59,554 nt of DNA, from IMG/VR virus record IMGVR_UViG_3300027644_000013, positions 1 to 59,554 of that record; one strand, given 5' to 3'. The translations under genes were made by a program, and so were the position numbers. Shown here one piece after another: positions 380 through 50,151 of this stretch. How positions within the stretch are numbered: position 1 is the stretch's first letter; each line of letters starts with the position of its first letter. The notes under the pieces are model-generated. The model was not told the DNA's origin, did not search any database, and saw only the letters and a program-made list of their open reading frames with translations. The DNA is from a virus (lineage: Duplodnaviria > Caudoviricetes).

Positions 380-459
380 GAAACCTTGTCCGAAAGGGTA
401 CCCCCTTTTAATTCGGACACCCTGCCACAAATTTGGGAACAGCAAAGGACTACAGGGAT

Positions 460-1148: not shown

Positions 1149-1727
1149 TTACTGGCTGGTCTCGGCTTGTGCTTCTACCGAAGTTTCGATTGGGCGTGGA
1201 TCCGAAGACTCAGTATGAGATGTCGGATAAGAACCAGAAGTGGCCGACGCTGTACCATCAGCCTCCTTGTTATCGGGGGGAGAACTAGCCTTACAATATC
1301 GGTTGTAATACCCCTGCCCCCACCAAGTCAAAATCTCCTCCCCTGCTTTGATATCTTTGATTGCGTAGAAAAGCACCAACCTCTGATTTGCTATTACCTT
1401 GTACGCACAATTTGATAGCTCCTTTGTTTCAGCGGAGTTGTAAATACAACCATTGCCCAAAGGTAAAACAGCTTGCGCTCCGTGCCTTTTACATTCCTCG
1501 CACTCGCAATTAGCCCAGTAAGAGTAGCGACGAAACTCTGGGTCGTGCTGATACTTATTGCGATAGTCCATCACAATGGAATGACAAAACTCAATCGGCC
1601 TTCCCTTCTCAATATCGATATCTGCAAAAACTCCCAGCCCCTTGCTCCCAGCTTCTTTGACTCGTAGGTGTGGCGTGAAGAACCCGTCGGTCTTCAACTT
1701 GTCCCAAGCCTCTTTCACGTCGGCCAT
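1149..1727 (-). CDS. SET-domain protein (lysine methyltransferase-like)
   Basis: KGLGVFADIDIEKG, LGNGCIYNS...NC, FYAIKDIKAGEEIL; start at ATG 1727. Confidence 0.85.
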   Translation of the reverse strand: MADVKEAWDKLKTDGFFTPHLRVKEAGSKGLGVFADIDIEKGRPIEFCHSIVMDYRNKYQHDPEFRRYSYWANCECEECKRHGAQAVLPLGNGCIYNSAETKELSNCAYKVIANQRLVLFYAIKDIKAGEEILTWWGQGYYNRYCKASSPPDNKEADGTASATSGSYPTSHTESSDPRPIETSVEAQAETSQ

Positions 1728-1778
1728 TTCAAAAACAAATATCTGAAATAAAAAGCGATACCACACCCCACGGAGCTA

Positions 1779-6267: not shown

Positions 6268-6504
6268 ATGAAAATTTATTCTAATCAAAATGTAAATGCA
6301 GAACAGATTATCCCATTTCCAGATGAAGTTCATACTACGGAATTAGACTGGTGGATGATTTATGATGCTGATACAAAGGTAATTACAATTCAACCAATAC
6401 AATGCTCTGGGTACACATCTAGCCCCTTGACCATGGTTATTGCAGATACTGAAGAAGAATTAGAACAGTATGTTATAGATAATAAATTAGGACTAACCCT
6501 ATGA
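6268..6504 (+). CDS. Small acidic protein (possible fibre chaperone)
   Basis: Directly follows the LRR gene with the same AT-rich composition. Confidence 0.6.
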   Translation: MKIYSNQNVNAEQIIPFPDEVHTTELDWWMIYDADTKVITIQPIQCSGYTSSPLTMVIADTEEELEQYVIDNKLGLTL

Positions 6505-6710
6505 GCTACAACCGAGAAAAAGAAGCCCTAGCGGCGATCTCCTATCTTCACGATGAAGGATTCTTGGAATGCTTCCTAGACAAGGATGGAACTCCTTGCG
6601 TTCGATTAACCATTGGACTTCGTGAAGCCAGAAAAACAATTTCCACGTTAGCAAAGAAAATCAACAAACCGACTGATTCTGCCGATTGGTGGAAGTATGA
6701 AAAAAAATAA
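6501..6710 (+). CDS. Hypothetical protein
   Basis: ATGA-coupled ORF, ends ADWWKYEKK. Confidence 0.6.
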   Translation: MSYNREKEALAAISYLHDEGFLECFLDKDGTPCVRLTIGLREARKTISTLAKKINKPTDSADWWKYEKK

Positions 6711-26409: not shown

Positions 26410-26443
26410 TCGCACACCTCGCCATTGATGGTTGAAATCGAAT

Positions 26444-28669: not shown

Positions 28670-28935
28670 GCGATCCAGCCAGCCAACTGGCACTCATAGA
28701 GCGGTTAAAAGACAATTCTGGTTATAACGAGTGGTATCTCCCTGCCCTCTCAAGGCATCTGGAAGGTCTTAAAGAAGCGGTTTTAGAGGCTGGAATTACC
28801 CCAGAAGAGCGTCAAAACAGGCACTCAGCCTATATGGCAGTTAAGGAAGTGCTGGCTCTGGTTCCGTCACAGGAGGCCGCACTTTATAGGATTCTGCAAG
28901 GCCACGAATCACGGCCAGAGCCTCGTCGTAAGTAA
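28666..28935 (+). CDS. Small helical protein following the portal
   Basis: ATGA coupling; usual position after such portals. Confidence 0.7.
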   Translation: MSDPASQLALIERLKDNSGYNEWYLPALSRHLEGLKEAVLEAGITPEERQNRHSAYMAVKEVLALVPSQEAALYRILQGHESRPEPRRK

Positions 28936-30193
28936 AGAATTTATCCACGAACTTAACTAGACGAACCTTGTCGTCGGCCAAAACCTTATGGGCGGTGCAT
29001 TTGTCTGAGTGTTGGTTCTGGAGGCAAACTTCCTCATAAGAAGCTGTCCCTGCAATTCTTACTCCGACAAGGAACGTCATAAGCCTAGACCCCTTCTTAT
29101 CCGCAAAAGAGGCCTCCTTAATGAGCGCCTCCGCCAACTCGTCAGATAGCGGATCTTTCATCATAAAGAATATCTGGGAGTGATCGAAAGACGTGGAAAC
29201 AACGGAGGCATCGCAATCCTCGATCCGCCGATCAACATCAAGAACAACCATGGCTACCCCATTTTCGTCAATCGGCTTGCAATTCATAATTCTATGGGAA
29301 AACACTCCAGTTCTAATCACTTTATTTGCCGAGGCTATATCCGTGTAGGCAGGGGAAGAGTGTTTTAGCACCCCATCAGATTCCAAGAAGTTACCGATAT
29401 AGCTTCGATTATTAGGGTCGTACTTTTGAGAGATTGATATGCCAGAAGGCCCCCATATTCTGCTTACAAAATCAGTAGCAATCGAAAGCCCTATTTCTTC
29501 TGGTGAAGATGCAATAATCTCTCCACGAAGCTCGGATTTGTCTAGTCGCATTAACTGGGACTTCAGATCATCCTTAAAAACACTTTTAATCGGAGGGTGG
29601 GTTATGAAGTTGCGTAGCTCTGGAGAGTCGTAATGCTTGATCTTTAGCTTGTTGCAAACCAAGGCTAACGGCCAAGAGTGTGCGCCTTGCCCATTTCTAG
29701 CCACAAACCTTTTTCTTTTGAGCTGAAATTGCTTGTCTGGATTCAAGATAGAAGGACTTAGCAATATCCCCTCGTCCACAATCCTTCGTGCCGTAGCCCG
29801 ATCTAATCCAAAGTACCCCTGCTTGGTCTCCACGGAGTCCGCAGAACCAAGAACATTATGATATCCGTGAATGCCCGCTGGCATGTTTAGCAGAGTCTCC
29901 TCAAGGTTTTCGGCTGGAACACCAAATATGCAATCTGGCTCTACTTTCAGAATATATGTCCCACTCATCCTTAATCCAAGAACCAGCAATTCGTGAAGCG
30001 CAATTCCTCCAGCCAAGTGTAGGTCTTCTTTAGTTTTATGGATAAGGTCTACATACTGCTCAATGTCTTTTGGATGCTGGCAAGCATTCGCAAGAATACC
30101 TATTTTAGAGTTTGGCAGTTTTTCCCTTATTGTCCTAGCTGTCTCGACAGCCAGATCTTTGTCGCCTTCCCATATTTGCATTACAACGATCAT
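28841..30193 (-). CDS. Glycosyltransferase-like (GT-A) N-terminus fused to a RepB-primase-like C-terminus
   Basis: MIVVMQIWEGD...YILKVEPDCIF (DxD-like); C-terminal VVLDVD...VVSTSFDHSQIFF...D...VRIAGT; ATGA coupling at 30193. Confidence 0.5.
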   Translation of the reverse strand: MIVVMQIWEGDKDLAVETARTIREKLPNSKIGILANACQHPKDIEQYVDLIHKTKEDLHLAGGIALHELLVLGLRMSGTYILKVEPDCIFGVPAENLEETLLNMPAGIHGYHNVLGSADSVETKQGYFGLDRATARRIVDEGILLSPSILNPDKQFQLKRKRFVARNGQGAHSWPLALVCNKLKIKHYDSPELRNFITHPPIKSVFKDDLKSQLMRLDKSELRGEIIASSPEEIGLSIATDFVSRIWGPSGISISQKYDPNNRSYIGNFLESDGVLKHSSPAYTDIASANKVIRTGVFSHRIMNCKPIDENGVAMVVLDVDRRIEDCDASVVSTSFDHSQIFFMMKDPLSDELAEALIKEASFADKKGSRLMTFLVGVRIAGTASYEEVCLQNQHSDKCTAHKVLADDKVRLVKFVDKFFTYDEALAVIRGLAESYKVRPPVTEPEPALP

Positions 30194-30786
30194 TCCACGC
30201 CCCACTTTTCCTTTGGACAACTCTGCGATGGCATTCGTAGTTTCGCCTCACCGCATCCACACACACGACACCGCCCAGTTCCTAGAAAAGCCGTCGGATC
30301 GTAGTATTCACACGACATACAAATAGATTTTCTCGCTGAGAAGGTTTCGGGCTTCACATGAGTTGTCAGCGTATTCGTGTTAATTGCTTTCACGAAAGCC
30401 GCCGACAAAGTCTTGAGCTGTTGAACTGGCGAAGGTGGCTTAAAGAACAGGGCCAAAACTTCTCTGGGAGATGGCAAGATTTCGCTATCAACTGCACAAA
30501 CCCAGCCATCACCTACACATCGCTGAATGTTAATGGCATTATTCTGATAACACTTCCCAATCATTCCCCTTCTAACGAATGGAGACAGATTCTTCCAGTC
30601 ATCCTCCGAGATGGTTTTGTAGAAATAGACGCTCCGAGTATCGCTTTCGTATCGAAGTGTCTTGCTGTGGGCAAGCTCGTGCAATAATGGGTCATTCGCT
30701 TCTGAATCTATCTTATAGATCCGCCTGTCTATCTCAATAGACATAAGGCCTGCTTCCAAAACGATTCCATCGTTAGTTATATTCAT
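30190..30786 (-). CDS. Protein with C-terminal Cys cluster (CxxC...CxxCGC...CPxxKW)
   Basis: ICMSCEYY...CRVCGCGEAKLRMPSQSCPKEKWG. Confidence 0.75.
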   Translation of the reverse strand: MNITNDGIVLEAGLMSIEIDRRIYKIDSEANDPLLHELAHSKTLRYESDTRSVYFYKTISEDDWKNLSPFVRRGMIGKCYQNNAINIQRCVGDGWVCAVDSEILPSPREVLALFFKPPSPVQQLKTLSAAFVKAINTNTLTTHVKPETFSARKSICMSCEYYDPTAFLGTGRCRVCGCGEAKLRMPSQSCPKEKWGVE

Positions 30787-33455
30787 TTTTGTTTAACACC
30801 TCCAAGCTCTGTGAAAGGAAGAAATTCGAGCGTAACATCAAAGCTTGTTTTAATAATTTGCTCCTCTTGGGCAGAGCCGTAGCATCCCATTTTTCCTGCA
30901 CCAGAATAAGTTGTAGGAGGTGTTGGCTGCCTTTCGTCGCATGGGTTTTCATGCCCTTCTGGACCAGGATCGCAGTCGCAGTTACACCCGCAACACGCAC
31001 AGAGATCACAATTACCAGAACAACTTTTGCAATCTTCGCATCCGTTACAATTAGCAGATTGTGGGCAATCTTCTGTTCCAGTAAAAGAGCTTGAATAGGA
31101 GTAGGCGCAGATTAACGGCTCGCAAGGTACTGGTAAATTACAAGGATCTTCCTTAATCATTGTTCCGCAACCATTTTCGAGCGGGACAAAAGCATTATAA
31201 ACCGCACAGCAATCGCAATCATCAGTACATTGGGCTCTAGTGGTTCTTGTGCAGCCAAATACCCAATTCCGATGCTCGCCGATTCCACTAACGGTCTCGC
31301 CTTCGCATGACGTAGCATTTCTAGAATAATTTGTAGTCCAAAGCGGAATAGCAGTAGACCAATCGCCAGATTTAAGCGTTAGCGTTCCGACTTGGTCTAC
31401 GGATTTCTTGTATCCATTCGCTGCATCTAGGTTCTCGTGCCATGTCTTGCACGTCGATATTGGGCTTAGATTTGCAGGATCCGTAATTCGGTATCCAAGT
31501 CCAGCTTGCGGAAATTGTGGTGTGGTTCCGCTATGCCAGCTTGACGAGTAAGGACTTTCATCCCCCGACCCCATAAATATGAAGGAAATGCAGAGATCTT
31601 GAGCGTCTGTATTTTTTATGTTAACATCAAGCGGAATTGGAGATTCCTCTAGATACCTTAACCCTTGGAAAGTAAACGGAGCTTTCGCCGTCTGAGCATA
31701 TCTCCCGATCGTGAGAGCATAATAAAAAGGACTACTGCATTTACTTGTTACATCCGATAAGTCAGATCCGCTTGGATGCGGAATTGGGGGACATTTGGTT
31801 AGGTCGCTTACGTCACTGCAATCTTCTTTTTCGTAGCATTGCTTCTCAGCAATACAAGTCAGCTTGTACGTTCCTTGATCTCCGTACACAGAGCAAGGAG
31901 CGCAACCTGTTTCATCTTGATCCACCCATTGAAGGATTGCCCTCTGGCGATCCGTTGCGTCATATAGTCTTATTCCGTCAGAATCGGCTGTACCAAAATT
32001 CGCAAGACCATTGGGGCAACCCCCAGTCATGGTTACATTCAGCCCTGTTGGGATCGGACCGCCTTTTGGGCGTCTAAATGACTCTAACTGAGTATTTGAG
32101 CAACTTTTCGGCTCAAATAGTAGTTCATCTGATTCAACCCCAACGTATTCCGCTAACCCTGCGCTATATCTAGCGATAAGAGCAGGCCCAGAAGTGAAAT
32201 TACTTGTTTTTGACAAGAGAGGAGGCTTTTCACCAAAAAAGTTGGGTAAAAATAAATTGGGGGGGGCTTGTATTAAATCCTTTACAATAAATCCGCCCTC
32301 GTCACACAAATCGTTCCCAAGCTTCTTAAGTAGCAAGTTTTCCTCTTGATCCCGTCTTATAATATCAAGATCAAGAGGGGTCGTTACTGCACATCCAGCC
32401 TCAAGCTTTGTTACTTTTTCTCTTTCGCCAAGCATCTTAGCCTTTAAGTAATCGAGTGGATCTGGGCATAGTCCGCTATCTTCGCAACCGCATTCAAGCC
32501 CTGTTCGCACAAAGAAGTTGTTTGCTTTTTGTGCATTGCTCCCTTGATAAAAGTTTGGCGACAAGTCTAGTTTGACTGGCTCTTCTTCCCAAAGTGAAGT
32601 CAATAGATTATATCGACTCATTGTCCCACCAACAGAACCCTTAAGACGAATTGTCGTCTTTTCTGACGATGAAGTACAAGTGTAAGAAGCTGTTCTAGTT
32701 TTCTTAACAGGCGAGCCGCCTGGACAGTAAAGTGGAAGGTAGTATGTCTGCTTTACTGTCTGCGATGTTTCTCCAGAACACTTTTTGTTTTGAGCTTCTA
32801 TGGAATGATCTAAAGCGCCAGTAAACTTTATTTCCTTTGTGCAGTTTATTATCTTGTGAGCTACGTCTGCTGGAATTGATACGCTTGATGCTGGACTATG
32901 ATTAAGGATGCAGTCTTCCTTGATGATGGAAGGAGTAAAACCAGACGGGAACTTCTTTGGCCTGTAAACAAACGGCCCCGAGAACCCCGCGCTAGGGGGA
33001 ACATCAATCTTTGTAACTATGCGTTCATCGTCTTCATCAACAGCATCGATGGAGAACTTTATCGGATATTTCGAGATTACATTTAATGGAATACTCTCTT
33101 GCGGTACAAGCGAGCTGTCTTCATGGCTCTTTTTATTTTTGTCCTCCCATTCTCTCAAAATAGAACCCTCTGATCCAATGACATACTGCTTCACATCCTT
33201 TCTCGTCTTTCTTTCCTTGGTCATGTCATCATAGTCATACTCAAGGTGACCTTGTGTGTTGATTCCTTTGGCAAGGCATCCATAGACTTCTTCGCCTAGA
33301 TCGGGTTCGTCGCCCCTATGGCCATCGGCAGTCTTTTCGTATATGTTGTTTTTTCTTACAGTATCTTCGGTAAGAAAGTATTTGTTTAGTACAGACCCAA
33401 ACGGATTGTGGCTACCGCTACCAAATCTCTGAAAAGCTGTGTGCCTACCCTTCAT
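30783..33455 (-). CDS. Large cysteine-rich protein (~890 aa), possibly tail tip/receptor-binding
   Basis: Dozens of Cys, e.g. CNGCEDCKSCSGNCDLCACCGCNCDC; ATGA coupling at 33455. Confidence 0.75.
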   Translation of the reverse strand: MKGRHTAFQRFGSGSHNPFGSVLNKYFLTEDTVRKNNIYEKTADGHRGDEPDLGEEVYGCLAKGINTQGHLEYDYDDMTKERKTRKDVKQYVIGSEGSILREWEDKNKKSHEDSSLVPQESIPLNVISKYPIKFSIDAVDEDDERIVTKIDVPPSAGFSGPFVYRPKKFPSGFTPSIIKEDCILNHSPASSVSIPADVAHKIINCTKEIKFTGALDHSIEAQNKKCSGETSQTVKQTYYLPLYCPGGSPVKKTRTASYTCTSSSEKTTIRLKGSVGGTMSRYNLLTSLWEEEPVKLDLSPNFYQGSNAQKANNFFVRTGLECGCEDSGLCPDPLDYLKAKMLGEREKVTKLEAGCAVTTPLDLDIIRRDQEENLLLKKLGNDLCDEGGFIVKDLIQAPPNLFLPNFFGEKPPLLSKTSNFTSGPALIARYSAGLAEYVGVESDELLFEPKSCSNTQLESFRRPKGGPIPTGLNVTMTGGCPNGLANFGTADSDGIRLYDATDRQRAILQWVDQDETGCAPCSVYGDQGTYKLTCIAEKQCYEKEDCSDVSDLTKCPPIPHPSGSDLSDVTSKCSSPFYYALTIGRYAQTAKAPFTFQGLRYLEESPIPLDVNIKNTDAQDLCISFIFMGSGDESPYSSSWHSGTTPQFPQAGLGYRITDPANLSPISTCKTWHENLDAANGYKKSVDQVGTLTLKSGDWSTAIPLWTTNYSRNATSCEGETVSGIGEHRNWVFGCTRTTRAQCTDDCDCCAVYNAFVPLENGCGTMIKEDPCNLPVPCEPLICAYSYSSSFTGTEDCPQSANCNGCEDCKSCSGNCDLCACCGCNCDCDPGPEGHENPCDERQPTPPTTYSGAGKMGCYGSAQEEQIIKTSFDVTLEFLPFTELGGVKQK

Positions 33456-33997
33456 GTCGTAGTGATGAGGACGCCACGGAAGCCATTCACACAAGCAGGG
33501 ACAACAATCGGAACAGAGAATGAGCTTTGAACAATGGGGTATGTTAGATTACGACCAAACTTCGGGAATGGCCTCTGCTTTACGACAAGGCCAAGGAAAT
33601 GGCGAACCTTAGTCTGCTTTGCCAGTTCTTCCTCTGGCTCAAACAATGGCTTAACTGTGCTATATCCCTTTATTTCGGCGGAATCTATAACGCCATCGGT
33701 TACTTCACACTCAATATACACAAAAGTCTTGGCTCCTGCGGGTGTTAGCTCCTCGTCAAGTCCCTCTACCTCTACTGTAGTTCCGTGAATAAATGATCCT
33801 ACTGGGCCGACGTAGTATTTTGACATTACTCCATTGGAGAAACGTCCTGGTCTGATCTGGAAAAAGGCGTGCCAAGCATAGGACTTGGGGTTGATAATCC
33901 CCTCACCAAAGAATCTTGCCCCACCCGAACCCATAACGAATCCGTACCCAGACGCTGGACTAACCCCAAGAGGGCCAAGGGATTTGGGTTTGCTCAT
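33452..33997 (-). CDS. Hypothetical beta-rich protein, first gene of the inverted module
   Basis: ORF coupled to the Cys-rich gene; start 54 nt from site 5. Confidence 0.7.
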   Translation of the reverse strand: MSKPKSLGPLGVSPASGYGFVMGSGGARFFGEGIINPKSYAWHAFFQIRPGRFSNGVMSKYYVGPVGSFIHGTTVEVEGLDEELTPAGAKTFVYIECEVTDGVIDSAEIKGYSTVKPLFEPEEELAKQTKVRHFLGLVVKQRPFPKFGRNLTYPIVQSSFSVPIVVPACVNGFRGVLITTT

Positions 33998-35114: not shown

Positions 35115-36671
35115 ATGGCTACCCTTTTAATTCCTGAAAACAATTCGACGAGTGCAATCTCGTCACAAGCTTCCAATTTTCTACCCGAACTTTGGAAGAA
35201 AGGGGTTCAACTTTCGGAGGCTGCGGAGAATTTCTTCCAGCAATTCGAAGGCCCCTCAGAAAGCTACCCAGTCATGTCGGTCCGTGACTTGAGCAAGGGG
35301 GCGGGGACGAAAATTACGTTCCGCACCATGGCTCAACTCTACGGCGAAGGCGTGCAGGGTGAAACCTTAATCCAAGACAACACGGAAGACTTCCGAGTCG
35401 GATCTTATAATCTGACTGTGGATTTCTTGCGTCACGCTGTCTCTTACAATCGTCGGCTCGAGGAGAAAACTGCTCTCGCCAGCGAATTGAAGAGCAATGT
35501 TCCTGTGATGCTCGGCAACTGGCTCGGACGGATGAAAACCGAACGACTCCAGAAGCTGTTCCTCCACAGGGGTACTGCGAAAAACTACTACCAGGCTAAC
35601 GGAAAGGCCTCGATCAATGCGCTGTCGCATACCGATACCCTCTCCTATGACGGCTTGATCGCCGCTGGTCAGCAACTCCGCACTCGTGGGGCTCGCCCTG
35701 CGACCATCGGCCAAGTTGGCAAGAACAAGATCCAGAAGTTCGTTATCGTTTCCACAGGCGAAGGCTTGCTTTCCCTCAAGAGCGAATCGAAATATCTGGC
35801 CGCCTTGAACGCCGCCGCCGCCGCTGAAGGTGAAGGTGCGAAGCAGTTCACTGGTGGATACGTTGATCTCGATGGTCACGTCATCCGTCAGTTTGACCCT
35901 GCCGACCACGATGGTTTCGGTGCGATCGGATCTCCGATCAATGCCAAAGCCAGCTTGGGCGTCGCCATCACCTCAGCTAGTGTCTTGGCCGCAAGCGCGA
36001 CTTCCTTCACCCTCAAGGGTGGTGGATCTGCTACCGCCGCCGCCAAAACCGCTCCGAAGTACTTCAAGTTCTTCAGCGGGTACACCTATCCGACTGGTCT
36101 CGACCAGAGCGAAACCGCCATTAACTTCTCGAATCCTACTGGCACAGCCAGCGGGACGAGCTACACGGCTGGATACGTTCTGATCCTGTCGAGCGGTAAG
36201 TATGGCTTGTACAAATACACCACAAACGACGGAAACACGCTGAACATCACCAAGGCATTGGTTCCTTCCGACGCAACTATCGGCGGAAGCAACACCCTTG
36301 CAGTCAAAAAGGCTACGGCCACGACTGGATGGGATGCGTCCGAAGCCACCCTCAATGCAAACGCATTTGCTGATTCAAAGATCACCAACTCTCACAGCGT
36401 TGGGGATTTGATTATCGAGTGCAACTCGTCGGGCGTACCGATTGGTCGCACGATGGTTCTCGGAGCAATGGCCGCAGTTCGTGGATACGGATCCTTGGAC
36501 GGCGAGCGTTCTGAAGAGACCTTTGACGGCCAGTTCATTCGTAAGACCTACATCACGAGCATATTCGGCCAAAGCCCTTATGTCCGTGTTGACGGCGAAC
36601 AACCCAACTACCTCGTACTGAACCACGCTGTTCGTTACGCAGGCTTGGTGTTGCCCGTAGACAACGTCTAA
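35115..36671 (+). CDS. Major capsid protein (N4 gp56/DUF4043-like)
   Basis: RDLSKGAGTKITF...GEGVQGE...DFLRHAV; AGGAGG RBS; biased codon use; followed by a terminator. Confidence 0.9.
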   Translation: MATLLIPENNSTSAISSQASNFLPELWKKGVQLSEAAENFFQQFEGPSESYPVMSVRDLSKGAGTKITFRTMAQLYGEGVQGETLIQDNTEDFRVGSYNLTVDFLRHAVSYNRRLEEKTALASELKSNVPVMLGNWLGRMKTERLQKLFLHRGTAKNYYQANGKASINALSHTDTLSYDGLIAAGQQLRTRGARPATIGQVGKNKIQKFVIVSTGEGLLSLKSESKYLAALNAAAAAEGEGAKQFTGGYVDLDGHVIRQFDPADHDGFGAIGSPINAKASLGVAITSASVLAASATSFTLKGGGSATAAAKTAPKYFKFFSGYTYPTGLDQSETAINFSNPTGTASGTSYTAGYVLILSSGKYGLYKYTTNDGNTLNITKALVPSDATIGGSNTLAVKKATATTGWDASEATLNANAFADSKITNSHSVGDLIIECNSSGVPIGRTMVLGAMAAVRGYGSLDGERSEETFDGQFIRKTYITSIFGQSPYVRVDGEQPNYLVLNHAVRYAGLVLPVDNV

Positions 36672-36724: not shown

Positions 36725-37015
36725 ATGAAGCTCGTCATCACAATTACTGGTTCTTCACGCTACAACCCAGCCATCAGACTCTCTGGTGGCTCTGGTCGGT
36801 ACTATACTTTTATCTGGAACAACGAATTTAATGCCCATGTCTGGAATCGAGGCGTTATTAGCCAAGAGGATTCCTCATCGGTGGATGATATTTTCGCTAC
36901 GAAAGATGCTTTTTACAGGCCAGCGGTTAAGATTCTTAAAGATGAGCCTGTTATTGATGAAACCCCTGCCCCTGTTGCAAAGACTAGGAGGCCTCGCAAG
37001 GCGGTGGCTGTATGA
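36725..37015 (+). CDS. Small virion-associated hypothetical protein
   Basis: MKLVITITG... after the terminator; basic tail. Confidence 0.65.
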   Translation: MKLVITITGSSRYNPAIRLSGGSGRYYTFIWNNEFNAHVWNRGVISQEDSSSVDDIFATKDAFYRPAVKILKDEPVIDETPAPVAKTRRPRKAVAV

Positions 37016-37695
37016 ACGTCACCCAAGCCATAGATGCAATTTATGAAGTGTTCGGCATACCAAATAATGCGTCTGCCCCCGAAATCATGCGAAGGCGGAT
37101 ATTCAACGACCTTAATTCGGCATTGCAACTCATCTGGTCAAAAGGGCATAGGCTTTTGGATTACTACACTCGTCAGACGATTACTGCGACCATCACGGCC
37201 AACTCAAATAATGTTGTCCTCAGTGACTCGGTGTCGGCGGTTCTAGGGCCTGTAAAGCGTGTTTCTGACGGACTAGGTCTTCGCCCGATCCGCACAAGGG
37301 GCGAGTACGATTCATTTGCTTCTATCTATGCTGGATCTCTGACAGCTCTTACTGGTGCGCCACCTCAAGCCTATTTTATTGATGAAAAACGACCAGACCC
37401 AGACGCATCTGATTCAACAAAGATCACGATGTTTGTAGTGCCGTCGCCAACCATAAACACATCTCTCTCGATAGAGGTTTCGCTTAAATCCCCAGCATTT
37501 ACGGTAAGCGACTACGGCACAAATCCCGCAATCGTAATCCCTATCCCCCACAACTACGCTGAGACCCTGCTGTTGCCTATCGCACGCTACCTATCCAGCA
37601 GTTCCCTGTTCTTTGCCGATAAATCCAAACAGAGAGAGCCTTTGCTAAAGGCAGAGTATGACAGGGCATTAAAAACCCTAGAGGAGGCCAAATGA
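37012..37695 (+). CDS. Putative head-tail adaptor
   Basis: Helix-beta-helix adaptor layout, G-x-P-x-x-Y, VVPSP, PIPHNY; position after capsid. Confidence 0.65.
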   Translation: MNVTQAIDAIYEVFGIPNNASAPEIMRRRIFNDLNSALQLIWSKGHRLLDYYTRQTITATITANSNNVVLSDSVSAVLGPVKRVSDGLGLRPIRTRGEYDSFASIYAGSLTALTGAPPQAYFIDEKRPDPDASDSTKITMFVVPSPTINTSLSIEVSLKSPAFTVSDYGTNPAIVIPIPHNYAETLLLPIARYLSSSSLFFADKSKQREPLLKAEYDRALKTLEEAK

Positions 37696-38561
37696 CATCA
37701 TTACAGCTCGCCCAAAGGGTCATTTCATTTACTAATCTTCCGAGCGATCCAATCTCTATACCAGCCGATCTGGCCGCTACGTTGATTGGTGCGATCAATG
37801 CTGGGTTTGCGAAATACTACTTTTCAGCTCCTTCTGGCCGTAAGACAACTCCTGTCACATCGTTCCAGCTTGCCCCTGTAAGCGTGTCCGTTGGCCTTAC
37901 CCAAGGATCTAGGAATGTGACAGGCCTTACCCTGTCCTCTGATACTGACAGGATCGGCGATACGCTTGAGATCGGTGACCGCAAGTGTCCTCTTGGTATT
38001 GGATCTACCCTTCGTGATCCGTGGTCTTTGGCTACTGGGACATATACTGGTCTGCTTTATGACGATGCGATCCCCCTGTGGGCGCCAATCCGTCGTATTG
38101 AAGGATCTGTAATCTGGGACGAAGACCATCGCCTAACCTTTCTTTCCGAAGCTCCGTTACGCCAAGACACCCTCACCTATTACAGGCAGAGCGGGCTTCC
38201 CGCTTACTACACAGCCGAATACCTCGGGGACACTATTGGCGGTGGAGCTAGGGCTTTAGTTCGTGTCATCCCCTTGCCCACAAAGGCTTCCTCGATCCGC
38301 TTCTCGGCCTCGCTAGAACCACAGCAGTTGGTTCTAACAGATCTACAGACACCTATCGGCATTTACACCCCAAGCTCTGATATCGAGGCTTTTTTAGTTC
38401 CCTTAATCGTTGGGGAGCTGGCGACAACTTCCCTGCTCAAACCAGAACTAGACAAAAACCTTATCGTAAAGAAGGCGGCGGAGTCCTTGGCCTTCTTGAA
38501 GTCGTACCACGAGCCTATCAGCGGTGCGATGAACAAGATGATGACTCCTGTGGGGTTCTAG
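37692..38561 (+). CDS. Second adaptor-like protein
   Basis: Similar layout (AINAG, SGLPAYY, RVIPLP) to the upstream adaptor. Confidence 0.6.
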   Translation: MTSLQLAQRVISFTNLPSDPISIPADLAATLIGAINAGFAKYYFSAPSGRKTTPVTSFQLAPVSVSVGLTQGSRNVTGLTLSSDTDRIGDTLEIGDRKCPLGIGSTLRDPWSLATGTYTGLLYDDAIPLWAPIRRIEGSVIWDEDHRLTFLSEAPLRQDTLTYYRQSGLPAYYTAEYLGDTIGGGARALVRVIPLPTKASSIRFSASLEPQQLVLTDLQTPIGIYTPSSDIEAFLVPLIVGELATTSLLKPELDKNLIVKKAAESLAFLKSYHEPISGAMNKMMTPVGF

Positions 38562-38562
38562 C

Positions 38563-39153
38563 ATGGCCCTTGTCGTACCACTCGCCTCTTCTGCCAGCGT
38601 CATCGAGAACATCCTCTTCAAGGTGCGGAGAGGGATTGCGTTGTCTCGGAACGCTTCACAGGCCAATCCAAACACAGGAGTAATGGTGGATCTCCCAGAG
38701 AAGATTGATTTTGAGATGACTCTCCTCAAAACCCACCAGTCCTCGGCCTTCCAGAGGATCGTTGGGACTACGGCCTCTGAGGGCGCAAGTGAGTCTAGGG
38801 TTACCATCTCCAATGAGGCCTCTGCCACAAACAAGGTCTCTGTTGATACGGAGTCGACAGATTCCAGAGAGCAGACTCGTGGTCAAGACTCTGAACAGAC
38901 AATCCGCACAGGCGGAGGAAGTGAAGGCGGAACCCAAGGATCTCAAGAGTCTGGTAGAGGCTTAGAAGGCGAAGCCAGCAACGAAAAAGAAAATGGGAAG
39001 TCTCAGTCTAGCTCAACCGAAGGAAGCCAAGGCAATGGGCAAAGTAGCGACGGAGAGGTCGAAAACAGATGCACATACCAAGATCACATAGCCTACAGGG
39101 AATATGACAAATTCGACACCGACACAGGCAAAATTGAAGGAATTTCTATTTAA
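38563..39153 (+). CDS. Trypco2-like N-terminal head plus long dyad-periodic beta-strand (paralog A)
   Basis: Shares VRRGIAxSRNAxQANPxxGVMVDLPEKIDFE with 39845; acidic residues on one parity. Confidence 0.8.
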   Translation: MALVVPLASSASVIENILFKVRRGIALSRNASQANPNTGVMVDLPEKIDFEMTLLKTHQSSAFQRIVGTTASEGASESRVTISNEASATNKVSVDTESTDSREQTRGQDSEQTIRTGGGSEGGTQGSQESGRGLEGEASNEKENGKSQSSSTEGSQGNGQSSDGEVENRCTYQDHIAYREYDKFDTDTGKIEGISI

Positions 39154-39162
39154 GGAGGCTTT

Positions 39163-39600
39163 ATGGGATACCAATTAGTCGACACGCAGAACAGCTCGCT
39201 TGCCAACAATTCGGCCAGCGTATCGTCATCGAACTCCTCGTCCTCGAGTAATTCGTCGAGCGGGTCTTCCAGTTCGTCGAGTAGCAATAGCTCCAGCCGT
39301 TCCTCCTCGAACAGCTCCAGCAGTAGTCGTTCATCATCCTCAAGCAGTAGCAGTAGCCGATCTACCTCGAATAGCTCAAGTTCTTCAACAAGCCGAAGCA
39401 GCTCCTCAAGCTCCTCGACTTCTGGAAGCTCAAGCTCGAGTCAGTCCTCTAGCGAATCTTCGTCCACCAGTTCATCCCAATCCTCCAGCACGAGTCGCTC
39501 TGGAATCTCGAGCAGAACTGAAACTCAAAAGGATGATATCGGTTGTGTGATTCGGTTCAGCGTGCCGATCGTTGTCCAATACCCAGGAGACGTTACATGA
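39163..39600 (+). CDS. Poly-serine protein with Trypco2-like C-terminal strand
   Basis: AGGAGG RBS; every odd residue 17-113 is Ser; ends IGCVIRFSVPIVV. Confidence 0.85.
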   Translation: MGYQLVDTQNSSLANNSASVSSSNSSSSSNSSSGSSSSSSSNSSSRSSSNSSSSSRSSSSSSSSSRSTSNSSSSSTSRSSSSSSSTSGSSSSSQSSSESSSTSSSQSSSTSRSGISSRTETQKDDIGCVIRFSVPIVVQYPGDVT

Positions 39601-39848
39601 GCCGATCCGAGCATCGTGAGTTTATGTCGGAACGTATGGCGAGAATGGAAGAGCGTATGATCTCCATGTCCAACGATGTATCCGAAATAAAGGCGGTTAT
39701 GGAGAAAAGCTTCGCGAGCTTCGGGGATCTAGCCAACCGAGTTTCGGCACTTGAGGGCTTTAAGAAGTTTTTTATTTTAGTCGCATCCGCCGTAGGAACG
39801 ATTGTTGGGCTTGCTGTAGAGGCGGCGATTAACTGGAGGGGCAAATGA
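39597..39848 (+). CDS. Small coiled-coil protein with C-terminal TM (XhlA/holin-like)
   Basis: MARMEERM...RVSALEGFKKFFILVASAVGTIVGLAV. Confidence 0.65.
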   Translation: MSRSEHREFMSERMARMEERMISMSNDVSEIKAVMEKSFASFGDLANRVSALEGFKKFFILVASAVGTIVGLAVEAAINWRGK

Positions 39849-40468
39849 CCATCGTTGATCTTTCTGATCTCGATACATTTATCCGTGATTCCCTGTTTGA
39901 AGTAAGAAGAGGGATTGCCAACTCACGAAATGCAACACAGGCAAACCCCTTAAATGGCGTGATGGTCGATCTGCCAGAAAAGATAGATTTTGAGATTATG
40001 GTCACATCGGCTCACCAAGGCCTCACAAGAAATGTTGTCTCAAGCGATTCAGATAATTCTTCCGAGGTTACTTCGGAGTCTCAGAAGAGCCTAAACGCGT
40101 CCATCGAATCCTCTAGTGCAGTCTCTCGCACATCGAGCGTCAACTTGTCTCAAAACACCGAAACATCAAAAGAAGGTCAAGCGGAACTCACTAAAGAAGT
40201 CAGTCAAGAATCCCAAAAGAGCCAAGACGGAGACAATCGGAAAGGCACGGCGGGTTCCGCTGAGTCTTCTCAAGAGAGTGACAAAAAACAGCAACAGAGC
40301 GGGCAATCGCAATCCGACACGAAGAAAAGTCAATCTAGGCAACTCGAGAGACACGCAGAGGCGAATGACCGAGGTTCTAGGACATTTGATGAGGAGGAGG
40401 GAACTTGGGGAGGCCAAGGACAGCTCAATACCCCACGGCTTCCATCAATACCATGCACATGTACTTAA
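39845..40468 (+). CDS. Trypco2-like N-terminal head plus long dyad-periodic beta-strand (paralog B)
   Basis: DLDTFIRDSLFEVRRGI...IDFEIMV; acidic residues all on even positions 68-172. Confidence 0.8.
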   Translation: MTIVDLSDLDTFIRDSLFEVRRGIANSRNATQANPLNGVMVDLPEKIDFEIMVTSAHQGLTRNVVSSDSDNSSEVTSESQKSLNASIESSSAVSRTSSVNLSQNTETSKEGQAELTKEVSQESQKSQDGDNRKGTAGSAESSQESDKKQQQSGQSQSDTKKSQSRQLERHAEANDRGSRTFDEEEGTWGGQGQLNTPRLPSIPCTCT

Positions 40469-40848
40469 TCCCATTTTTAGCACTCTTGCTTTGTGGGTGT
40501 TCAACACCTAGGCAGTCGGCTGACTTCTCTGTAGCGGAAGCTCGTATCGACGAGGCTATCGCTGTCGCCAATCCAGAGGCCAAGAAGCACCTAGTAGTAG
40601 CCAAAGCCCAATTAGAAAGTGCCGTACAGGCCTGTAAGCAGACCTCCGTGGATCTGGACGAGGCCGTTAAAGAGAAGAACGAGGCAATTAGGGACGCTGG
40701 AGTCTGGAAGGACAAACAGCGGAAGGCCTTAAAAGAGCTTTGGATCTATCGAGGTGCGCTTATCGCTTTAGGGCTATGGATGTTTAGAGGGGTCATATTT
40801 GGGGGCATTATGTTTGTGGCTAGAAAGTTCGTGGGGATCCCTTGGTGA
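40459..40848 (+). CDS. Lipoprotein with C-terminal TM (unimolecular spanin-like)
   Basis: MYLIPFLALLLCGC lipobox, coiled coil, C-terminal hydrophobic helix; in lysis cluster. Confidence 0.65.
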   Translation: MYLIPFLALLLCGCSTPRQSADFSVAEARIDEAIAVANPEAKKHLVVAKAQLESAVQACKQTSVDLDEAVKEKNEAIRDAGVWKDKQRKALKELWIYRGALIALGLWMFRGVIFGGIMFVARKFVGIPW

Positions 40849-41192
40849 AGAAGTTTCTCTCAAAGTTCCAAGGTCTTGGCTCGTTTTGTATAGCCATCAT
40901 TGTGTTCTGGTCGGCGGCCCCGCTGATCCAGCAGTTTGATCCATCGGCTGGGACGTATGACCGAGGATCCCTGCATGGCCTAATCCTTGGGGCTTCTGCC
41001 TATCTATTAGCGGTATGGCTGGCGTGGTTTGTTGTGCAAATGGAGTGGCCTTCGATCAACGAGTATATCGATACCTTGAGCTGGCTACAGGACTGGAGAT
41101 CTACAACCAGAACTGTTCGCCTCGTCATTGTGCTTTGCCTATGGTGCGTCCTTTTTATAGGAGCCGTGGTATGCCTTCTTGGCTGGCGTTAA
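40845..41192 (+). CDS. Putative holin (3 TM)
   Basis: Three hydrophobic segments; adjacent to the endolysin. Confidence 0.6.
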   Translation: MKKFLSKFQGLGSFCIAIIVFWSAAPLIQQFDPSAGTYDRGSLHGLILGASAYLLAVWLAWFVVQMEWPSINEYIDTLSWLQDWRSTTRTVRLVIVLCLWCVLFIGAVVCLLGWR

Positions 41193-41662
41193 TACTATTC
41201 CCCTTTTTGTCTTTTGCTGATGACCGAGGATGCGTCCTTGTCCAAGCAAGAAAGCTTGTTGGCGTAAAGGAGTGGGGTGTAAATACAGGCCCAGAGGTGG
41301 ATCTGTTCTTGTCCTCGGTTGAACTCGAACCAGGGAATCCGTGGTGTGCCGCTTTTAACTACTATGTGTTCCGTGAGGCTGGGTATGGCGACCTAGTACC
41401 CAAAACAGGCTGGAGTCCTTCTTGGGTAGTTGGTGGCAAGAGGGTCAGCTACTCACCCCCTGCCTCCGTGTTTGGGATCTACTTTAGTTCCCTTGGTCGG
41501 ATAGCCCATACAGGACTGATTGAGCGAACCGAGAATGGGTTTGCCACCACAATCGAGGGCAATACCAACTCGGCTGGGGATCGGGGTGCTGGCGGGGGTG
41601 ACGGCGTATACCGAAGGAAAAGGTCGATGAGGACGCTTGTGTGCCGAGATTGGCTAAAGTGA
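41171..41662 (+). CDS. CHAP-family endolysin with N-terminal signal-like segment
   Basis: PWCAAF, HTGLI, TIEGNT; MPSWLALILFPFLSFA N-terminus. Confidence 0.85.
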   Translation: MPSWLALILFPFLSFADDRGCVLVQARKLVGVKEWGVNTGPEVDLFLSSVELEPGNPWCAAFNYYVFREAGYGDLVPKTGWSPSWVVGGKRVSYSPPASVFGIYFSSLGRIAHTGLIERTENGFATTIEGNTNSAGDRGAGGGDGVYRRKRSMRTLVCRDWLK

Positions 41663-42599: not shown

Positions 42600-42837
42600 C
42601 TTTTGGTAGCAGTCGGTAGTGGGGAATCATTCTGCCACTACCATTAGAGATCAGTACTCGGAATGACTTCCTTTCGGCAAGCCCTAGATTCATCAATCTT
42701 GTAACAGCCTTGGATGCGTGGCCGTGGGTCTTGCCTAGCTCCTTGGAGATTTGTTTTATTGTTTTCCAGCCATCTGGGATTGGGCTCACTTTCTCTAATA
42801 AGTGCTTTTGCAGGGCTACTGCCCATTCGCTTTTCAT
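42586..42837 (-). CDS. Small winged-HTH protein
   Basis: GWKTIKQISKELGKTHGHASKAVTRL. Confidence 0.7.
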   Translation of the reverse strand: MKSEWAVALQKHLLEKVSPIPDGWKTIKQISKELGKTHGHASKAVTRLMNLGLAERKSFRVLISNGSGRMIPHYRLLPKAKSP

Positions 42838-43892
42838 CGGAACTCCGCACTAAACCTAGCAAAGGCACACTTCGGGCATCCAATCCCCTTCTTTAGATTG
42901 TCGTAGGCATTTTCAGCCATTCGCCGTGATTTGCTTGGGTTAAAGGCAAGCTGGGAGAGCCTGTGAGAGGCCTCATCATTGCTTGAGACCAGAAAACCAG
43001 TCTCTTGGTCTCTAACGAACTCTGGGACTCCGCCTTGATTCGCCCCGACCACTACAGCTCCGCTGGCGACGGCCTCAAACAGAACTCGCGGGGCATTTTC
43101 ATGTACTGGATACCACATCAAAATGGCGTGGGCGTCTCGGAAGTAGTTAGACAAAGTCGCTGGGCTGTAGATATGAGGGATAAGCTCGGCGTTGATTCTG
43201 CCGTGATATGGATGCCCTTCTTTGCCTACATCACCTAAGAGAGCCTCACCCTCCCTGCCCCATCCAATGACATTCAGTCTTGTCGTGACCCCGACAGGAG
43301 CTGTCACCTTGTAGAACAGATCCCACATATCCCTTGGGTATTTGAAGGGTTCATCGTCTCTGCCAATTCTTAATACATTGAGAGTATCTAGGGACTTATC
43401 GGAAAACCTTAACCTTCCCCATCTGCTATCAATGTTGAAGAAGGGGAAAACGTGCTGGAGATCCGCAGAAAGCCCGACTTCGGTTAGGCGTTTAGCAAGC
43501 TCCCCAAGCTGATAGTTCGACTGGCAAAGGATCTTTAGGTTCTTTGTCTTGGCTATGCCTACCAGCTCCCTGTCCCGAAGAACATTCATACAAGGCCAGT
43601 ACACAACTTGCCGAGGGGTCTCTTCGTGCCTAGCCAGATACTCAAAAATGCTGTCCTCACACCAGCACCAGACATTCTGGTCGTTGAACATACCAGGACT
43701 ATAGGCTTCCGTGGCTACCCCAAGAGAATCCAGATACCGCCTTCTCGGCTCGGAGGCAGAGAGAACATCTGTTCCCTGTGGAACAACGCAAGTGACCTCG
43801 ACTCCGTTATCTCGGAACAACTCAATGGCGTGGCCTGTTTCGGGTCCCGCCCCACCGCATTGGTGCAGATAGCCCCAGATATAAACCTTCAT
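42834..43892 (-). CDS. GT-B (GT4-like) glycosyltransferase
   Basis: GGAGPE, ENAPRVLFEAVASGAVVV...GGVPEFV...TGFLV. Confidence 0.9.
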   Translation of the reverse strand: MKVYIWGYLHQCGGAGPETGHAIELFRDNGVEVTCVVPQGTDVLSASEPRRRYLDSLGVATEAYSPGMFNDQNVWCWCEDSIFEYLARHEETPRQVVYWPCMNVLRDRELVGIAKTKNLKILCQSNYQLGELAKRLTEVGLSADLQHVFPFFNIDSRWGRLRFSDKSLDTLNVLRIGRDDEPFKYPRDMWDLFYKVTAPVGVTTRLNVIGWGREGEALLGDVGKEGHPYHGRINAELIPHIYSPATLSNYFRDAHAILMWYPVHENAPRVLFEAVASGAVVVGANQGGVPEFVRDQETGFLVSSNDEASHRLSQLAFNPSKSRRMAENAYDNLKKGIGCPKCAFARFSAEFR

Positions 43893-44200
43893 AGTCTTGG
43901 GAGTTTCCTCTTGAGCTGAAACCACGCAAAGAGACCACGAACGATAGTCCTCTCTAGGTGGTCGATGGCCGTCTCACCATTATTGTCGGGCTGGGGTTCA
44001 TTGAGGTGGATCTGTTGCTGGGCTGTGACAGCGTGCTTAATCGCCCTGCAAATATGGTAGTCGTAGGTAGGCTTGTCCTTATAAAGCCATTCTCCAAAGG
44101 CCGACTTGGCTGATCCGTTGCTCATAATTCTACGAGTTATCTCGGCGGCGGCGTTAGCCAGCTCTGCAATAGACGGAACGTGCTTTGGGTCTTCGGTCAT
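43889..44200 (-). CDS. dATP/dGTP diphosphohydrolase-like (DUF5664-like) protein
   Basis: GSAKSAFGEW...AIKH...DHLERTIVRGLFA resembles the G-x-x-K...W...RH...HL pattern. Confidence 0.45.
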   Translation of the reverse strand: MTEDPKHVPSIAELANAAAEITRRIMSNGSAKSAFGEWLYKDKPTYDYHICRAIKHAVTAQQQIHLNEPQPDNNGETAIDHLERTIVRGLFAWFQLKRKLPRL

Positions 44201-49065: not shown

Positions 49066-50151
49066 TTATGACCTCATCAGTCGTTGTGAATTTTTCATTT
49101 CAATGATGTCGGCAAGCACCGACTCGATTTTCGCCTTTGCTTCCTTCTCCTTGAGACCCGCCTTCGAAGCCAAGCTCCTAGTCGCATCGGTCAACGAAAC
49201 AGAGGAAGCACCCATCGCCACATCTTCGCCGAACGCCTCTTTGATGAGGTGATAGGCAGAGGCAGAGCTGGTGATGGATCTCCGCTTGCTGTTGATTAAC
49301 TTCCAACCAGGAATCTCACCTCCAGCGTCGAGGATCTCCCTCGCCCGCTTGCGAACATTCTCAATCACGCTCTCGGCAAGGGTGCAGACCTCCAGAAGCC
49401 TTGGGAGCTGGCTGGGATCGATAACCGCTGTCGAGCTTGTGGTCGTGAGGGTCTTTGTGGCTTCCTGTGCTTCTGGGCAGATCCCTGTGGCTTTGCAGTA
49501 CTGACACCAAGGACCAACTTGTCGGTAGGCAGACTTATCGGCGATCCGATCCAAGGACAACAGGGTGCGTTCCCGCTCTAGTCGGATCTCTGACCGAGTC
49601 ATCTTCTGTAAGACGATTGGGTTGTTGGGCTGGAGAATGGTCACATAGACCTCCTCAAGTCCGTATTCGTCGGCCGCCAAGAAGGCCAACACCCGAAGCT
49701 GGTGGCTCTTCTCGGTGGGAACAATCCCCATTCCTGTCTTGTAGTCTACGATCAGACCACGCTTAACGATGGTGTCCGTCCACAGAACAAGGTCGGGTTT
49801 CCCTGTCATCAGCGGGGTTTCCCCACGCTTCAGAACAAGTCGCTGTTCCCTGCTGGCCGTCAGCTTACCATTGAAGGTTTCGTCTACGGCTTTGACCTCA
49901 AGGCGGAAGGCCTCTACGGCTTGCTTTTCCATCTCTTGCAAAAGCTCGGCACATTCCACCTCGTCGGCGTTGGGTAGGTCATTGACCTTTCCGTCAGCCA
50001 AGGCGAAGTGAATCCGATCCCCTCTTTTTGCTTCTGGGCCAGTTTCTGTGTCTGGGATCAGCTCCTCTAGTTGCACCGAGCCAACGCAGTTTGTCCACCG
50101 CTCCGCCTTTGATGCACTAGGAAGTCCCATCCGTCCGTCATCAAATGTCAT
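49066..50151 (-). CDS. Cas4-like PD-(D/E)XK nuclease (DUF2800-like)
   Basis: PSASKAERWTNC, GKPDL, IVDYKTG, QL, GPWCQYCK...CP. Confidence 0.85.
   Translation of the reverse strand: MTFDDGRMGLPSASKAERWTNCVGSVQLEELIPDTETGPEAKRGDRIHFALADGKVNDLPNADEVECAELLQEMEKQAVEAFRLEVKAVDETFNGKLTASREQRLVLKRGETPLMTGKPDLVLWTDTIVKRGLIVDYKTGMGIVPTEKSHQLRVLAFLAADEYGLEEVYVTILQPNNPIVLQKMTRSEIRLERERTLLSLDRIADKSAYRQVGPWCQYCKATGICPEAQEATKTLTTTSSTAVIDPSQLPRLLEVCTLAESVIENVRKRAREILDAGGEIPGWKLINSKRRSITSSASAYHLIKEAFGEDVAMGASSVSLTDATRSLASKAGLKEKEAKAKIESVLADIIEMKNSQRLMRS

Follow-up and report, generated by a model that had tools for sequence, protein, structure and literature searches.

What do three proteins of strictly alternating residues build, when their genes lie directly behind the head-to-tail adaptors of a phage? 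The question is raised by positions 38,563 to 40,468 of IMG/VR virus record IMGVR_UViG_3300027644_000013, a sequence of 59,554 bp that is estimated to be 92% complete and is referred to here as the window. The locus encodes four proteins, which we call A, S, T and B. A first-pass annotation had described A, S and B as a split, Trypco2-like triplet and a candidate β-barrel for DNA delivery. We found that the three proteins keep a two-residue rhythm between conserved ends and that their lengths are exactly locked to each other across related loci. It is highly probable that A, S and B pair in exact register as one co-assembly. More tentatively, and with somewhat less than even confidence, we read this co-assembly as a tail or ejection apparatus of very long paired β-strands, most likely a thin hollow β-barrel under the adaptor ring.

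Conserved ends and period-2 cores of A, S and B

Both termini of A, S and B are conserved and their middles are variable. Protein A starts with a head (residues 1–51; a helix, then ..VMVDLPEKIDFE), continues through a core (residues 52–183; nt 38716–39111) and ends in a tip that begins with FDTDTG at residue 184. Its paralogue B has the same plan, with a head at residues 1–50 that is 55% identical to that of A, a core at residues 51–180 (nt 39995–40384) and the tip FDEEEG..PCTCT; exactly two genes in the window bear this head. Protein S opens with MGYQLVD, followed by a core (residues 8–121; nt 39184–39525) with one face of Ser/Thr and by a putative C-terminal strand, ..QKDDIGCVIRFSVPIVVQYPGDV. 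The head shared by A and B (..GVMVDLPEKIDFE..) and the S tail (..VIRFSVPIVV..), both singled out in the first-pass annotation, are present and conserved. Hydrophobicity profiles gave no transmembrane-like or signal segment in A, S or B. The Kyte–Doolittle maximum of S (1.17) falls within its C-terminal strand, no hydrophobic segment is seen at its N terminus, and its sequence contains no LPXTG motif.

The residue counts of the first-pass annotation were reproduced on recounting. Ser occupies every odd residue of S from 17 to 113 (49/49) and is encoded by mixed codons (AGC 22, TCG 16, TCC 15, AGT 11, TCA 9, TCT 7). Asp/Glu lie on odd positions in 18 of 19 cases between residues 73 and 167 of A and on even positions in all 18 cases between residues 68 and 172 of B, where V/L/I are odd (9/9); Pro is absent from residues 60–170 of both proteins. 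The odd/even contrast between A and B amounts to a one-residue offset of the heads, and the acids of both are in the same phase relative to ..IDFE. Counted from the D/E of the head, the Asp/Glu of the window A are distributed 18:1 in that phase and the hydrophobic residues 3:11 toward the other. When each core was shuffled 2000 times, a composite parity statistic gave p values of ~0.006 (A), <=0.0005 (S) and 0.043 (B), and a two-sided binomial test on Asp/Glu alone gave about 8e-5 (A) and 8e-6 (B). We considered a DNA-repeat artefact as the source of the period-2 pattern and rejected it, because Tandem Repeats Finder (TRF) reported a 15-bp array as the sole array in 38500–40500.

The gene set was found in four phage clades. 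Three IMG/VR scans gave 18, 21 and 4 loci in turn, the second repeating many contigs of the first; all loci are metagenomic and several are near-duplicates. Three clades have the order A-S-T-B, and in the fourth (L184–L187) T (about 3884–4141) precedes the gene of the second adaptor-like protein, adaptor-2, and S abuts B. A profile of the heads, searched against 1.84 billion representative proteins, returned 65 matches at E<=1e-3, 43 of them at <=1e-10; P0045 (349 aa) is a spurious match to a repeat protein. In the distant matches (98–163 aa), this head leads into a polar tail of T/S/E/G, and none belongs to a Pfam family. A protein of this distant group is encoded on a metagenome contig (L181) that carries genes for an adaptor-like protein, a 287-aa adaptor-2 homologue, a 190-aa insert (1759–2331) and then A-like and S-like proteins, of which the first is (N-S)n and the second is (S-X)n, ending ..VACRISFSVPILGRFP. 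No relative of the heads was found in contigs of bacteria and archaea sampled at one genome per species, and IMG/VR scans with the distant matches P0060 and P0039 returned nothing. A word-based search for homologues of the S tail gave one candidate and none that scored, an ESM Atlas search with the A head gave no usable match, and a PDB profile search with the heads returned only noise (E 1.7).

Across the cores of these relatives, the phase set by the head motif is kept over the entire length in 17 of 17 tabulated loci, with Asp/Glu ratios such as 33:1 (A of L008) and 39:0 (B of L013). In A and B, the phase of the head D/E is occupied by Asp/Glu or Gly, or by Lys/Arg in B of L184–L186, and the other phase by hydrophobics, Ser/Thr, Asn/Gln and many basic residues. 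In S, the phase of R and S in [RK]F[SR]VP holds Ser/Thr at 1241 of 1328 positions (93%; 19 loci). The exceptions are N, I, A, V, L, F, Q, C, K (3), G (3) and Y, never D, E, R, H or P, and the opposite face takes every acid and almost all bases and Gly. Net charges partly offset each other, acidic A and B proteins being accompanied by an S of +5 to +15; clade 4 combines an S close to 0 with an acidic A and a basic B. Core chemistry appears free provided that the phase is kept, and A and B are often oppositely charged. A cores run as (G-N/K/H)n in L013, L010 and L012, B cores as (S-D/E)n or, in L184–L186, as (S-K/R)n, and the S core of L186 is (T-G/N)n instead of (S-X)n.

Comparison of the window with the related locus L001 separated synonymous from non-synonymous codon differences in each part. 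The S core (102 codons) differed by 27 synonymous and 2 non-synonymous changes, which shows that the S frame is coding and under purifying selection; the same excess led us to reject an overlapping +2 frame (39200–39550) as a real gene. The heads gave 16:2 (A) and 7:0 (B). The A and B cores, at 17:24 and 9:17, evolve fast with their phase retained.

The length lock and the direction of S

We measured the length of each core between motifs of our own definition. In A and B, the distance covers the residues between ..[DE][FY]E and the tip motif [FLYWI][DEN]xx[TGSED]G; in S, it covers those between the N-terminal [LA][VA]D and x[KR]DD[IV]GC. The B distance exceeds that of S by 16 residues in 22 of 22 loci drawn from the four clades, which hold 14 distinct and, since several loci are near-duplicates, 14 independent length triples. 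The A distance is 16 residues longer than that of S at 11 of 23 loci and 18 longer at the other 12, with L173 lacking a B measurement because its contig ends. Distances in S take the values 66, 114, 128, 134, 140, 144, 146, 156, 174, 178, 182, 188 and 194 and correlate with those in B at r = 1.000; for whole-protein lengths of the set, r is 0.96–0.995 over 18 loci. The A and B cores of the window are dissimilar in sequence yet locked in length, at 132 and 130 residues.

Lengths also change in even steps. From 80 distinct A/B-type proteins (those of the loci together with the matches P0001–P0044), we dropped 8 without a tip anchor, several of them fragment-like. The head-to-tip distance is even in 69 of the remaining 72, as is every S distance. 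These head-to-tip distances take 27 and 19 distinct values and span 82–242 residues, and the three odd cases (P0037, P0039 and P0044) are the most divergent matches. Even-numbered indels and co-varying strand lengths, the two signs by which the first-pass annotation proposed to check its reading, are thus both seen. The neighbouring proteins are constant in size, with adaptor-2 at 287–289 aa at every related locus read and the 116-aa protein downstream of B unchanged. We also considered whether core length tracks genome size and rejected this, as the cores of five long contigs, all of 64.0–64.9 kb, differ greatly in length (by up to about 70 residues); core length does not follow DNA content. 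If the chains pair in exact register, the genome spells out the length of the object in triplicate, and any change requires equal, even steps in all three genes.

The cores might instead be disordered spacers, inside the capsid or for charge buffering, whose dipeptide pattern arose by hexanucleotide slippage. Their composition is disorder-like, AlphaFold2 confidence is low and some relatives have tandem DNA repeats, all of which suit such spacers. Purifying selection on the S core, a phase continuous with the head strand and the lack of DNA repeats at 38500–40500 beyond the one short array speak against them, and the exact B–S offset, together with the even-only changes, excludes independent slippage as the origin. 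The disordered-spacer reading is largely refuted, and we leave it almost no probability.

Recent repeat expansions bear on the direction of S. In L008, separate 30-nt arrays are present in all three genes (5.6 copies in A, 6.0 in S and 5.6 in B; positions 6377–6647, 6855–7033 and 8009–8288), and A and B each hold a second array of 2.6–2.7 copies. L009 and L013 likewise have arrays in A, S and B; the arrays of L013 have periods of 18, 24, 30, 54, 36 and 72 nt. Tandem-repeat periods in the A, S and B genes are multiples of 6 nt, save two 15-nt rows in the S genes of L007 and L014, the latter of which TRF scored as period 30 too. Counted from the C-terminal anchor, the S arrays lie at 95–154 (L008), 95–142 (L013) and 100–132 (L010), where they coincide with those of A (109–164, 73–152 and 78–187) and B (110–166, 111–141 and 113–180). 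Counted from the N terminus, the S arrays at 20–79 (L008) and 14–61 (L013) miss those of A and B, and in L010 (56–88) the overlap with A is only about 10 residues. An antiparallel match is obtained in three of four informative loci, L009 being ambiguous. This coincidence and the conserved ends fit an antiparallel S, and the placement of the expansions supports the proposal of the first-pass annotation that S is the strand returning toward the heads. On these sequence patterns, S probably runs antiparallel to A and B.

The L008 repeat units of A and B encode similar peptides (G-S-[DG]-T-E-T..), with that of S unrelated, as judged by eye. This similarity suggests some exchange between the paralogues, and the sequences hint at gene conversion between A and B in L008.

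A putative β-barrel below the adaptor ring and its alternatives

The first-pass annotation had placed the genes behind the adaptors, and this position is confirmed. The first adaptor gene (37012–37695) matches SU10_adaptor, and the AlphaFold2 model of adaptor-2 (37692–38561; pLDDT 78.6) matches podophage adaptor chains in a Foldseek search of the PDB, namely GP4 8jov_G (E 5.6e-5), B2 9d83_B, DEV 9bgm_B, Pa223 9nwi_A, SU10 7z47_A (E 5.1e-4) and N4 9lc0_H. Overall, E values range from 5.6e-5 to 6e-4 with low TM-scores of 0.25–0.38. Adaptor-2 has no Pfam or PHROG match, and a PDB sequence-profile search gave no match for either adaptor. The adaptor-2 stop codon lies 1 nt upstream of the A start, and the start and stop codons of A, S, T and B abut or overlap, the T start overlapping the S stop and the T stop overlapping the B start.

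In the assembly that we propose, the middles of A, S and B would be single long β-strands, of 66–194 residues between anchors, lying side by side in exact register. A and B would extend from a conserved base formed by the N-terminal helix and the ..DLPEKIDFE strand. With S antiparallel, its conserved C-terminal strand (..GCVIRFSVPIVV) would also be located at the base, and its N-terminal motif (M-x-[YF]-x-L-[VA]-D) would sit at the distal tip beside the [FL]-D-x-x-T-G motifs of A and B. The sheets could close into a thin, polar, hollow β-barrel below the dodecameric adaptor ring of a podovirus-type phage, giving a tube or needle of genetically set length, ~20–60 nm by arithmetic at about 3.3 Å per residue. 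As a speculation by the same kind of arithmetic, twelve hairpins on a dodecameric adaptor would make a barrel of 24 strands around a lumen of about 3 nm. Such a tube may help to deliver the genome, and T, a small membrane protein, would be its partner at the membrane end. Prediction of the A+B+S complex with alignments, run without controls, gave ipSAE values of 0.03 and 0.13 against a mark of 0.32, which count neither for nor against this assembly.

Closure into a barrel is suggested by analogy with Pepco proteins and by the instability of free sheet edges. A role in DNA delivery is suggested by the gene position, by T, by the failure to recognise any nozzle or tube and by the need of podophages for a channel across the envelope, their tails being described in the cited literature as too short. 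A hollow delivery tube is possible, if on the doubtful side. In its most specific form, a polar β-barrel nanotube of 20–60 nm made of three polypeptides with a Pepco-like architecture and tuned in matched two-residue steps, the proposal is unlikely to hold in every part.

Cys and His residues are conserved at both inferred ends. At the tip, A has RCTxQxH or ECSDKC, and B has C-x-C or KCS at its C terminus; at the base, S has one conserved Cys (GC[VI]), and clade 2 A heads add another (GVMCDLPE). In the window, these sites lie at 39070–39090 (A Cys170 and His), 40454–40465 (B ..PCTCT) and 39544–39546 (S Cys128). The pattern suggests possible disulfides or a metal site.

Pepco/Trypco2 proteins are protease-activated β-barrel pore-formers of bacterial defence systems. 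A preprint describes Pepco (Trypco1/2), of about 117 aa, as an N-terminal amphipathic helix plus a hairpin, assembling into SDS-resistant 9–10-mer β-barrels that have the amphipathic helices at their base, a charged lumen and a predominantly hydrophobic exterior (bioRxiv 10.1101/2025.11.14.688446); the Trypco domains were named in a paper in eLife (2020). A and B share with Trypco2 the N-terminal amphipathic helix and an outgoing strand of alternating acidic and hydrophobic residues (..VELEL.. there, ..IDFEM.. here), and S shares a returning strand that ends h-[KR]-h-x-h-x-P (..HRIKIPLKP in 12 genuine proteins, ..VIRFSVPIV here). By contrast, the hairpin here is split over two polypeptides and is 5–15 times longer, and its outgoing arm comes in two paralogous forms. 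A polar exterior takes the place of the hydrophobic one, no neighbouring gene was recognised as a peptidase gene, and the genes belong to a phage structural module rather than a defence locus.

The label 'Trypco2-like' was not supported as a statement of homology. The Pfam model PF19631 matched neither A, S and B nor the isolated heads, the S tail or the six-frame window (E<=10), and NCBIfam and PADLOC gave no Trypco2 match. The PF19631 model does find genuine members, in 10/251, 9/401 and 1/301 genomes; genuine genes were taken from genomes of cyanobacteria, Pseudomonadota and one other phylum, and 12 of them served for comparison. Alignment of 81 heads with these 12 proteins by hhalign covered 37 columns in the expected register (helix on helix, KIDFE on VELEL) and was not significant (Prob 0.46%, P 0.13), compared with P 0.64 for a reversed-profile control; a smaller, first hhalign test had given Prob 0.2%. 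S tails aligned over one column only (P 0.33), which is no real alignment. Trypco2/Pepco homology is statistically unsupported, and we therefore regard the resemblance as architectural only. Judged by size, no fused A+S form is present among the 65 head-profile matches (real ones <=318 aa; 24 of 65 sequences read), and no peptidase family was found in the 41 ORF translations, part of those in the window, that were scanned with Pfam.

The same likeness raises the question of whether A, S and B are a Pepco-like, non-virion pore-former in the membrane, serving lysis, superinfection exclusion or counter-defence. Their genes adjoin lysis genes (those of the spanin-like protein, the 116-aa hydrophobic protein and the CHAP endolysin), T has a transmembrane-like segment, and the chain order, a helix and then strands leading out and back, is reminiscent of Pepco; the hhalign alignment likewise put helix on helix and KIDFE on VELEL. 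Neither strand face is hydrophobic enough for a bilayer, however, unlike the Pepco exterior, and strands of 66–194 residues far exceed the thickness of a membrane. Signal peptides and a peptidase partner are absent in these scans, the homology is not significant, and the set is still found behind the adaptors in clade 4 and L181. We consider a membrane pore very improbable.

The chemistry of S raises another alternative, a solid heteromeric β-fibre, whisker or needle at the adaptor ring, which would act in adhesion, spacing or plugging. Its S face would be packed into a tight polar core or, like the stalks of serine-rich-repeat proteins, be O-glycosylated, here by a conserved phage glycosyltransferase. 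The length lock and conserved ends suit any in-register fibre equally well, and the independence of core length from the amount of DNA counts in its favour. The S face, overwhelmingly Ser/Thr with uncharged exceptions (N, I, A, V, L, F, C), would also fit, and (S-X)n is a hallmark of serine-rich-repeat glycoproteins. A group-1 glycosyltransferase gene about 4.3 kb downstream of the set, on the opposite strand, keeps the same relative place in 12 loci (44–95% identity by tblastn), the other 10 loci ending before it; its product could be a candidate modifier of the S Ser/Thr face. Virion glycosylation by phage glycosyltransferases is a topic of the cited literature on actinobacteriophages.

With serine-rich-repeat glycoproteins of Gram-positive bacteria and silk-like (G/S-X)n sheets, the cores have in common a long (S-X)n periodicity in mixed codons; a glycosyltransferase gene is also conserved nearby, and some relatives have (G-X)n cores (A of L013 and L010). 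They differ in having no signal peptide, cell-wall anchor (LPXTG) or accessory Sec system, and in forming three length-locked chains with conserved, structured ends in a phage virion module. The lack of such secretion context also counts against a solid fibre, as do the distal tips, whose conservation is unusual for receptor-binding fibres, and the co-transcription of membrane protein T within the set in three clades. To our knowledge, no trimeric phage fibre contains an antiparallel chain. A solid fibre, the chief alternative to the tube, is possible, and we judge it somewhat unlikely.

Several observations weigh against the β-barrel that we favour. We know of no example of continuous strands of 100–190 residues. 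The AlphaFold2 monomer of B has a mean pLDDT of 48.6, with only the N-terminal helix (6–33) moderately confident and values <50 across residues 66–163. The composition of the cores (S, G, N, D, E, K, T, Q and few hydrophobics) resembles that of disordered regions. The Ser/Thr face of S admits I, V, L, F, A and N and looks buried or modified, unlike the wall of a wide, water-filled lumen. Nor is an acidic face universal, as the corresponding phase has 15–16 K/R/H in B of L184–L186 and Gly in A of L013 and L010, and the data fit more than one choice of which A/B and S faces share a side of the sheet. From the position of their genes, A, S and B are putative virion parts. The major head protein (MCP), A and adaptor-2 are unmatched in 50,697 GenBank phage records, and no cultured phage among them carries these genes. 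Searches of Pfam, PHROG, PDB profiles and NCBIfam found no homology to tail tube, nozzle, needle or ejection proteins, and a conventional nozzle could be among the unannotated ORFs of 903, 459 and 490 aa described below.

Genomic neighbourhood and meaning for phage tails

The set is encoded in a structural module (Table 1) in the order MCP, a 112-aa ORF, adaptor, adaptor-2, A, S, T and B, followed by lysis genes. T has a Kyte–Doolittle 19-residue maximum of 2.16 at residues 60–78 and matches PHROG 35984, of unknown function (E 4.4e-4). With a lipobox near its N terminus and a hydrophobic segment at its C terminus, the spanin-like protein has the layout of a one-piece spanin. The TTG start listed for it falls within the end of the B gene, and translation probably begins at an internal Met before ..YLIPFLALLLCGC.

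Table 1 Features of the locus and its surroundings in the window
Feature	Size (aa)	Position	Strand	Basis or content
SU10-type portal		26432–28669		Pfam E 2.7e-26
Major head protein (MCP)		35115–36671		PHROG 334, E 2.3e-20
Head-to-tail adaptor	227	37012–37695	+	Pfam PF24175 SU10_adaptor, E 3.4e-7, 31.3 bits (cut-off 27 bits)
Adaptor-like protein (adaptor-2)	289	37692–38561	+	AlphaFold2 model and Foldseek
Protein A	196	38563–39153	+	Head, period-2 core, tip
Protein S	145	39163–39600	+	N-terminal motif, period-2 core, C-terminal strand
Protein T	83 (from ATG)	39597–39848 (TTG-start listing from 39543)	+	Coiled-coil-like N-terminal part, hydrophobic C-terminal segment
Protein B, paralogue of A	207	39845–40468	+	Head, period-2 core, tip
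Spanin-like protein		40405–40848	+	Lipobox (..LLLCGCS..), hydrophobic C-terminal segment; PHROG 456 Rz-like spanin, E 0.015 (weak)
Hydrophobic protein	116	40842–41192		Precedes endolysin
CHAP-type endolysin		41015–41662	+	PHROG 9589, E 1.5e-13; Pfam CHAP E 0.0019, below cut-off
Group-1 glycosyltransferase		42834–43925	-	Pfam PF00534, E 1.3e-11, 44.8 bits (cut-off 26.4)

Pfam and PHROG scans recognised no nozzle, tube or needle in the window, in which several large ORFs are without annotation. ORFs without any family encode 903 aa (30783–33494, minus strand), 459 aa (28841–30220, minus strand), 490 aa (8612–10084) and, in one case, 326 aa. A single ORF of 5440 aa (10087–26409, plus strand) fills the space between the terminase region and the portal; it contains a ddrB-like ParB domain (E 9e-16) and parts of a Strawberry-notch-type helicase (AAA_34, Helicase_C_4), and its second half has no Pfam match. 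It is similar to the giant 'polyvalent' proteins that phages are believed to inject together with their DNA, and if so, the delivery channel must let a protein of 5440 aa through.

Elsewhere in the window are a serine recombinase (433–1098, plus strand; Resolvase, E 8.5e-41), a SET-domain protein (1149–1766, minus strand; E 8e-10) and a DUF2800/PD-(D/E)XK nuclease (49066–50151, minus strand; E 1.5e-29), and no tRNA gene was found over its whole length. An adaptor-2 homologue (P0077) is publicly labelled as belonging to an actinobacterial metagenome-assembled genome; this is the sole hint of a host and possibly a binning artefact.

Known systems share some of these features. Known podophage ejection channels are mainly α-helical. 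As with the ejection proteins of podophages (T7 gp14/15/16, P22 gp7/16/20 and N4), the genes of A, S and B follow those of the tail adaptors within the structural module, and the set has one membrane-active member. They differ in having no Pfam or PHROG homology, and no ejection protein is known with low-complexity period-2 strands or length-locked genes. In tape-measure proteins and in heterotrimeric collagen or coiled-coil fibres, polypeptide length encodes rod length and partner chains must match. Here, by contrast, the period is 2, as in β-strands, rather than 3 or 3.5, one chain appears to be antiparallel, and the ruler chains appear to be the structure itself. In the searches made, we found no family, solved structure or paper that describes such a gene set.

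Even without a tube, an exact length lock across three genes demands a structural explanation. If in-register pairing over 66–194 residues is true, it would be the longest regular β-pairing known to us, and a natural case of matched polypeptides, and no separate ruler, fixing how long a structure is. For protein design, the set would offer a minimal, highly polar period-2 code with natural variants at two-residue resolution and caps for base and tip. Rapid, coordinated length shifts among near-identical phages suggest selection by a feature of the host, such as the thickness of its envelope or capsule. For phage biology, the co-assembly would give short-tailed phages a β-type route across the cell envelope, or else represent a new kind of tail fibre, and should the nanotube reading prove true, it would be a new way of making and measuring a phage tail.

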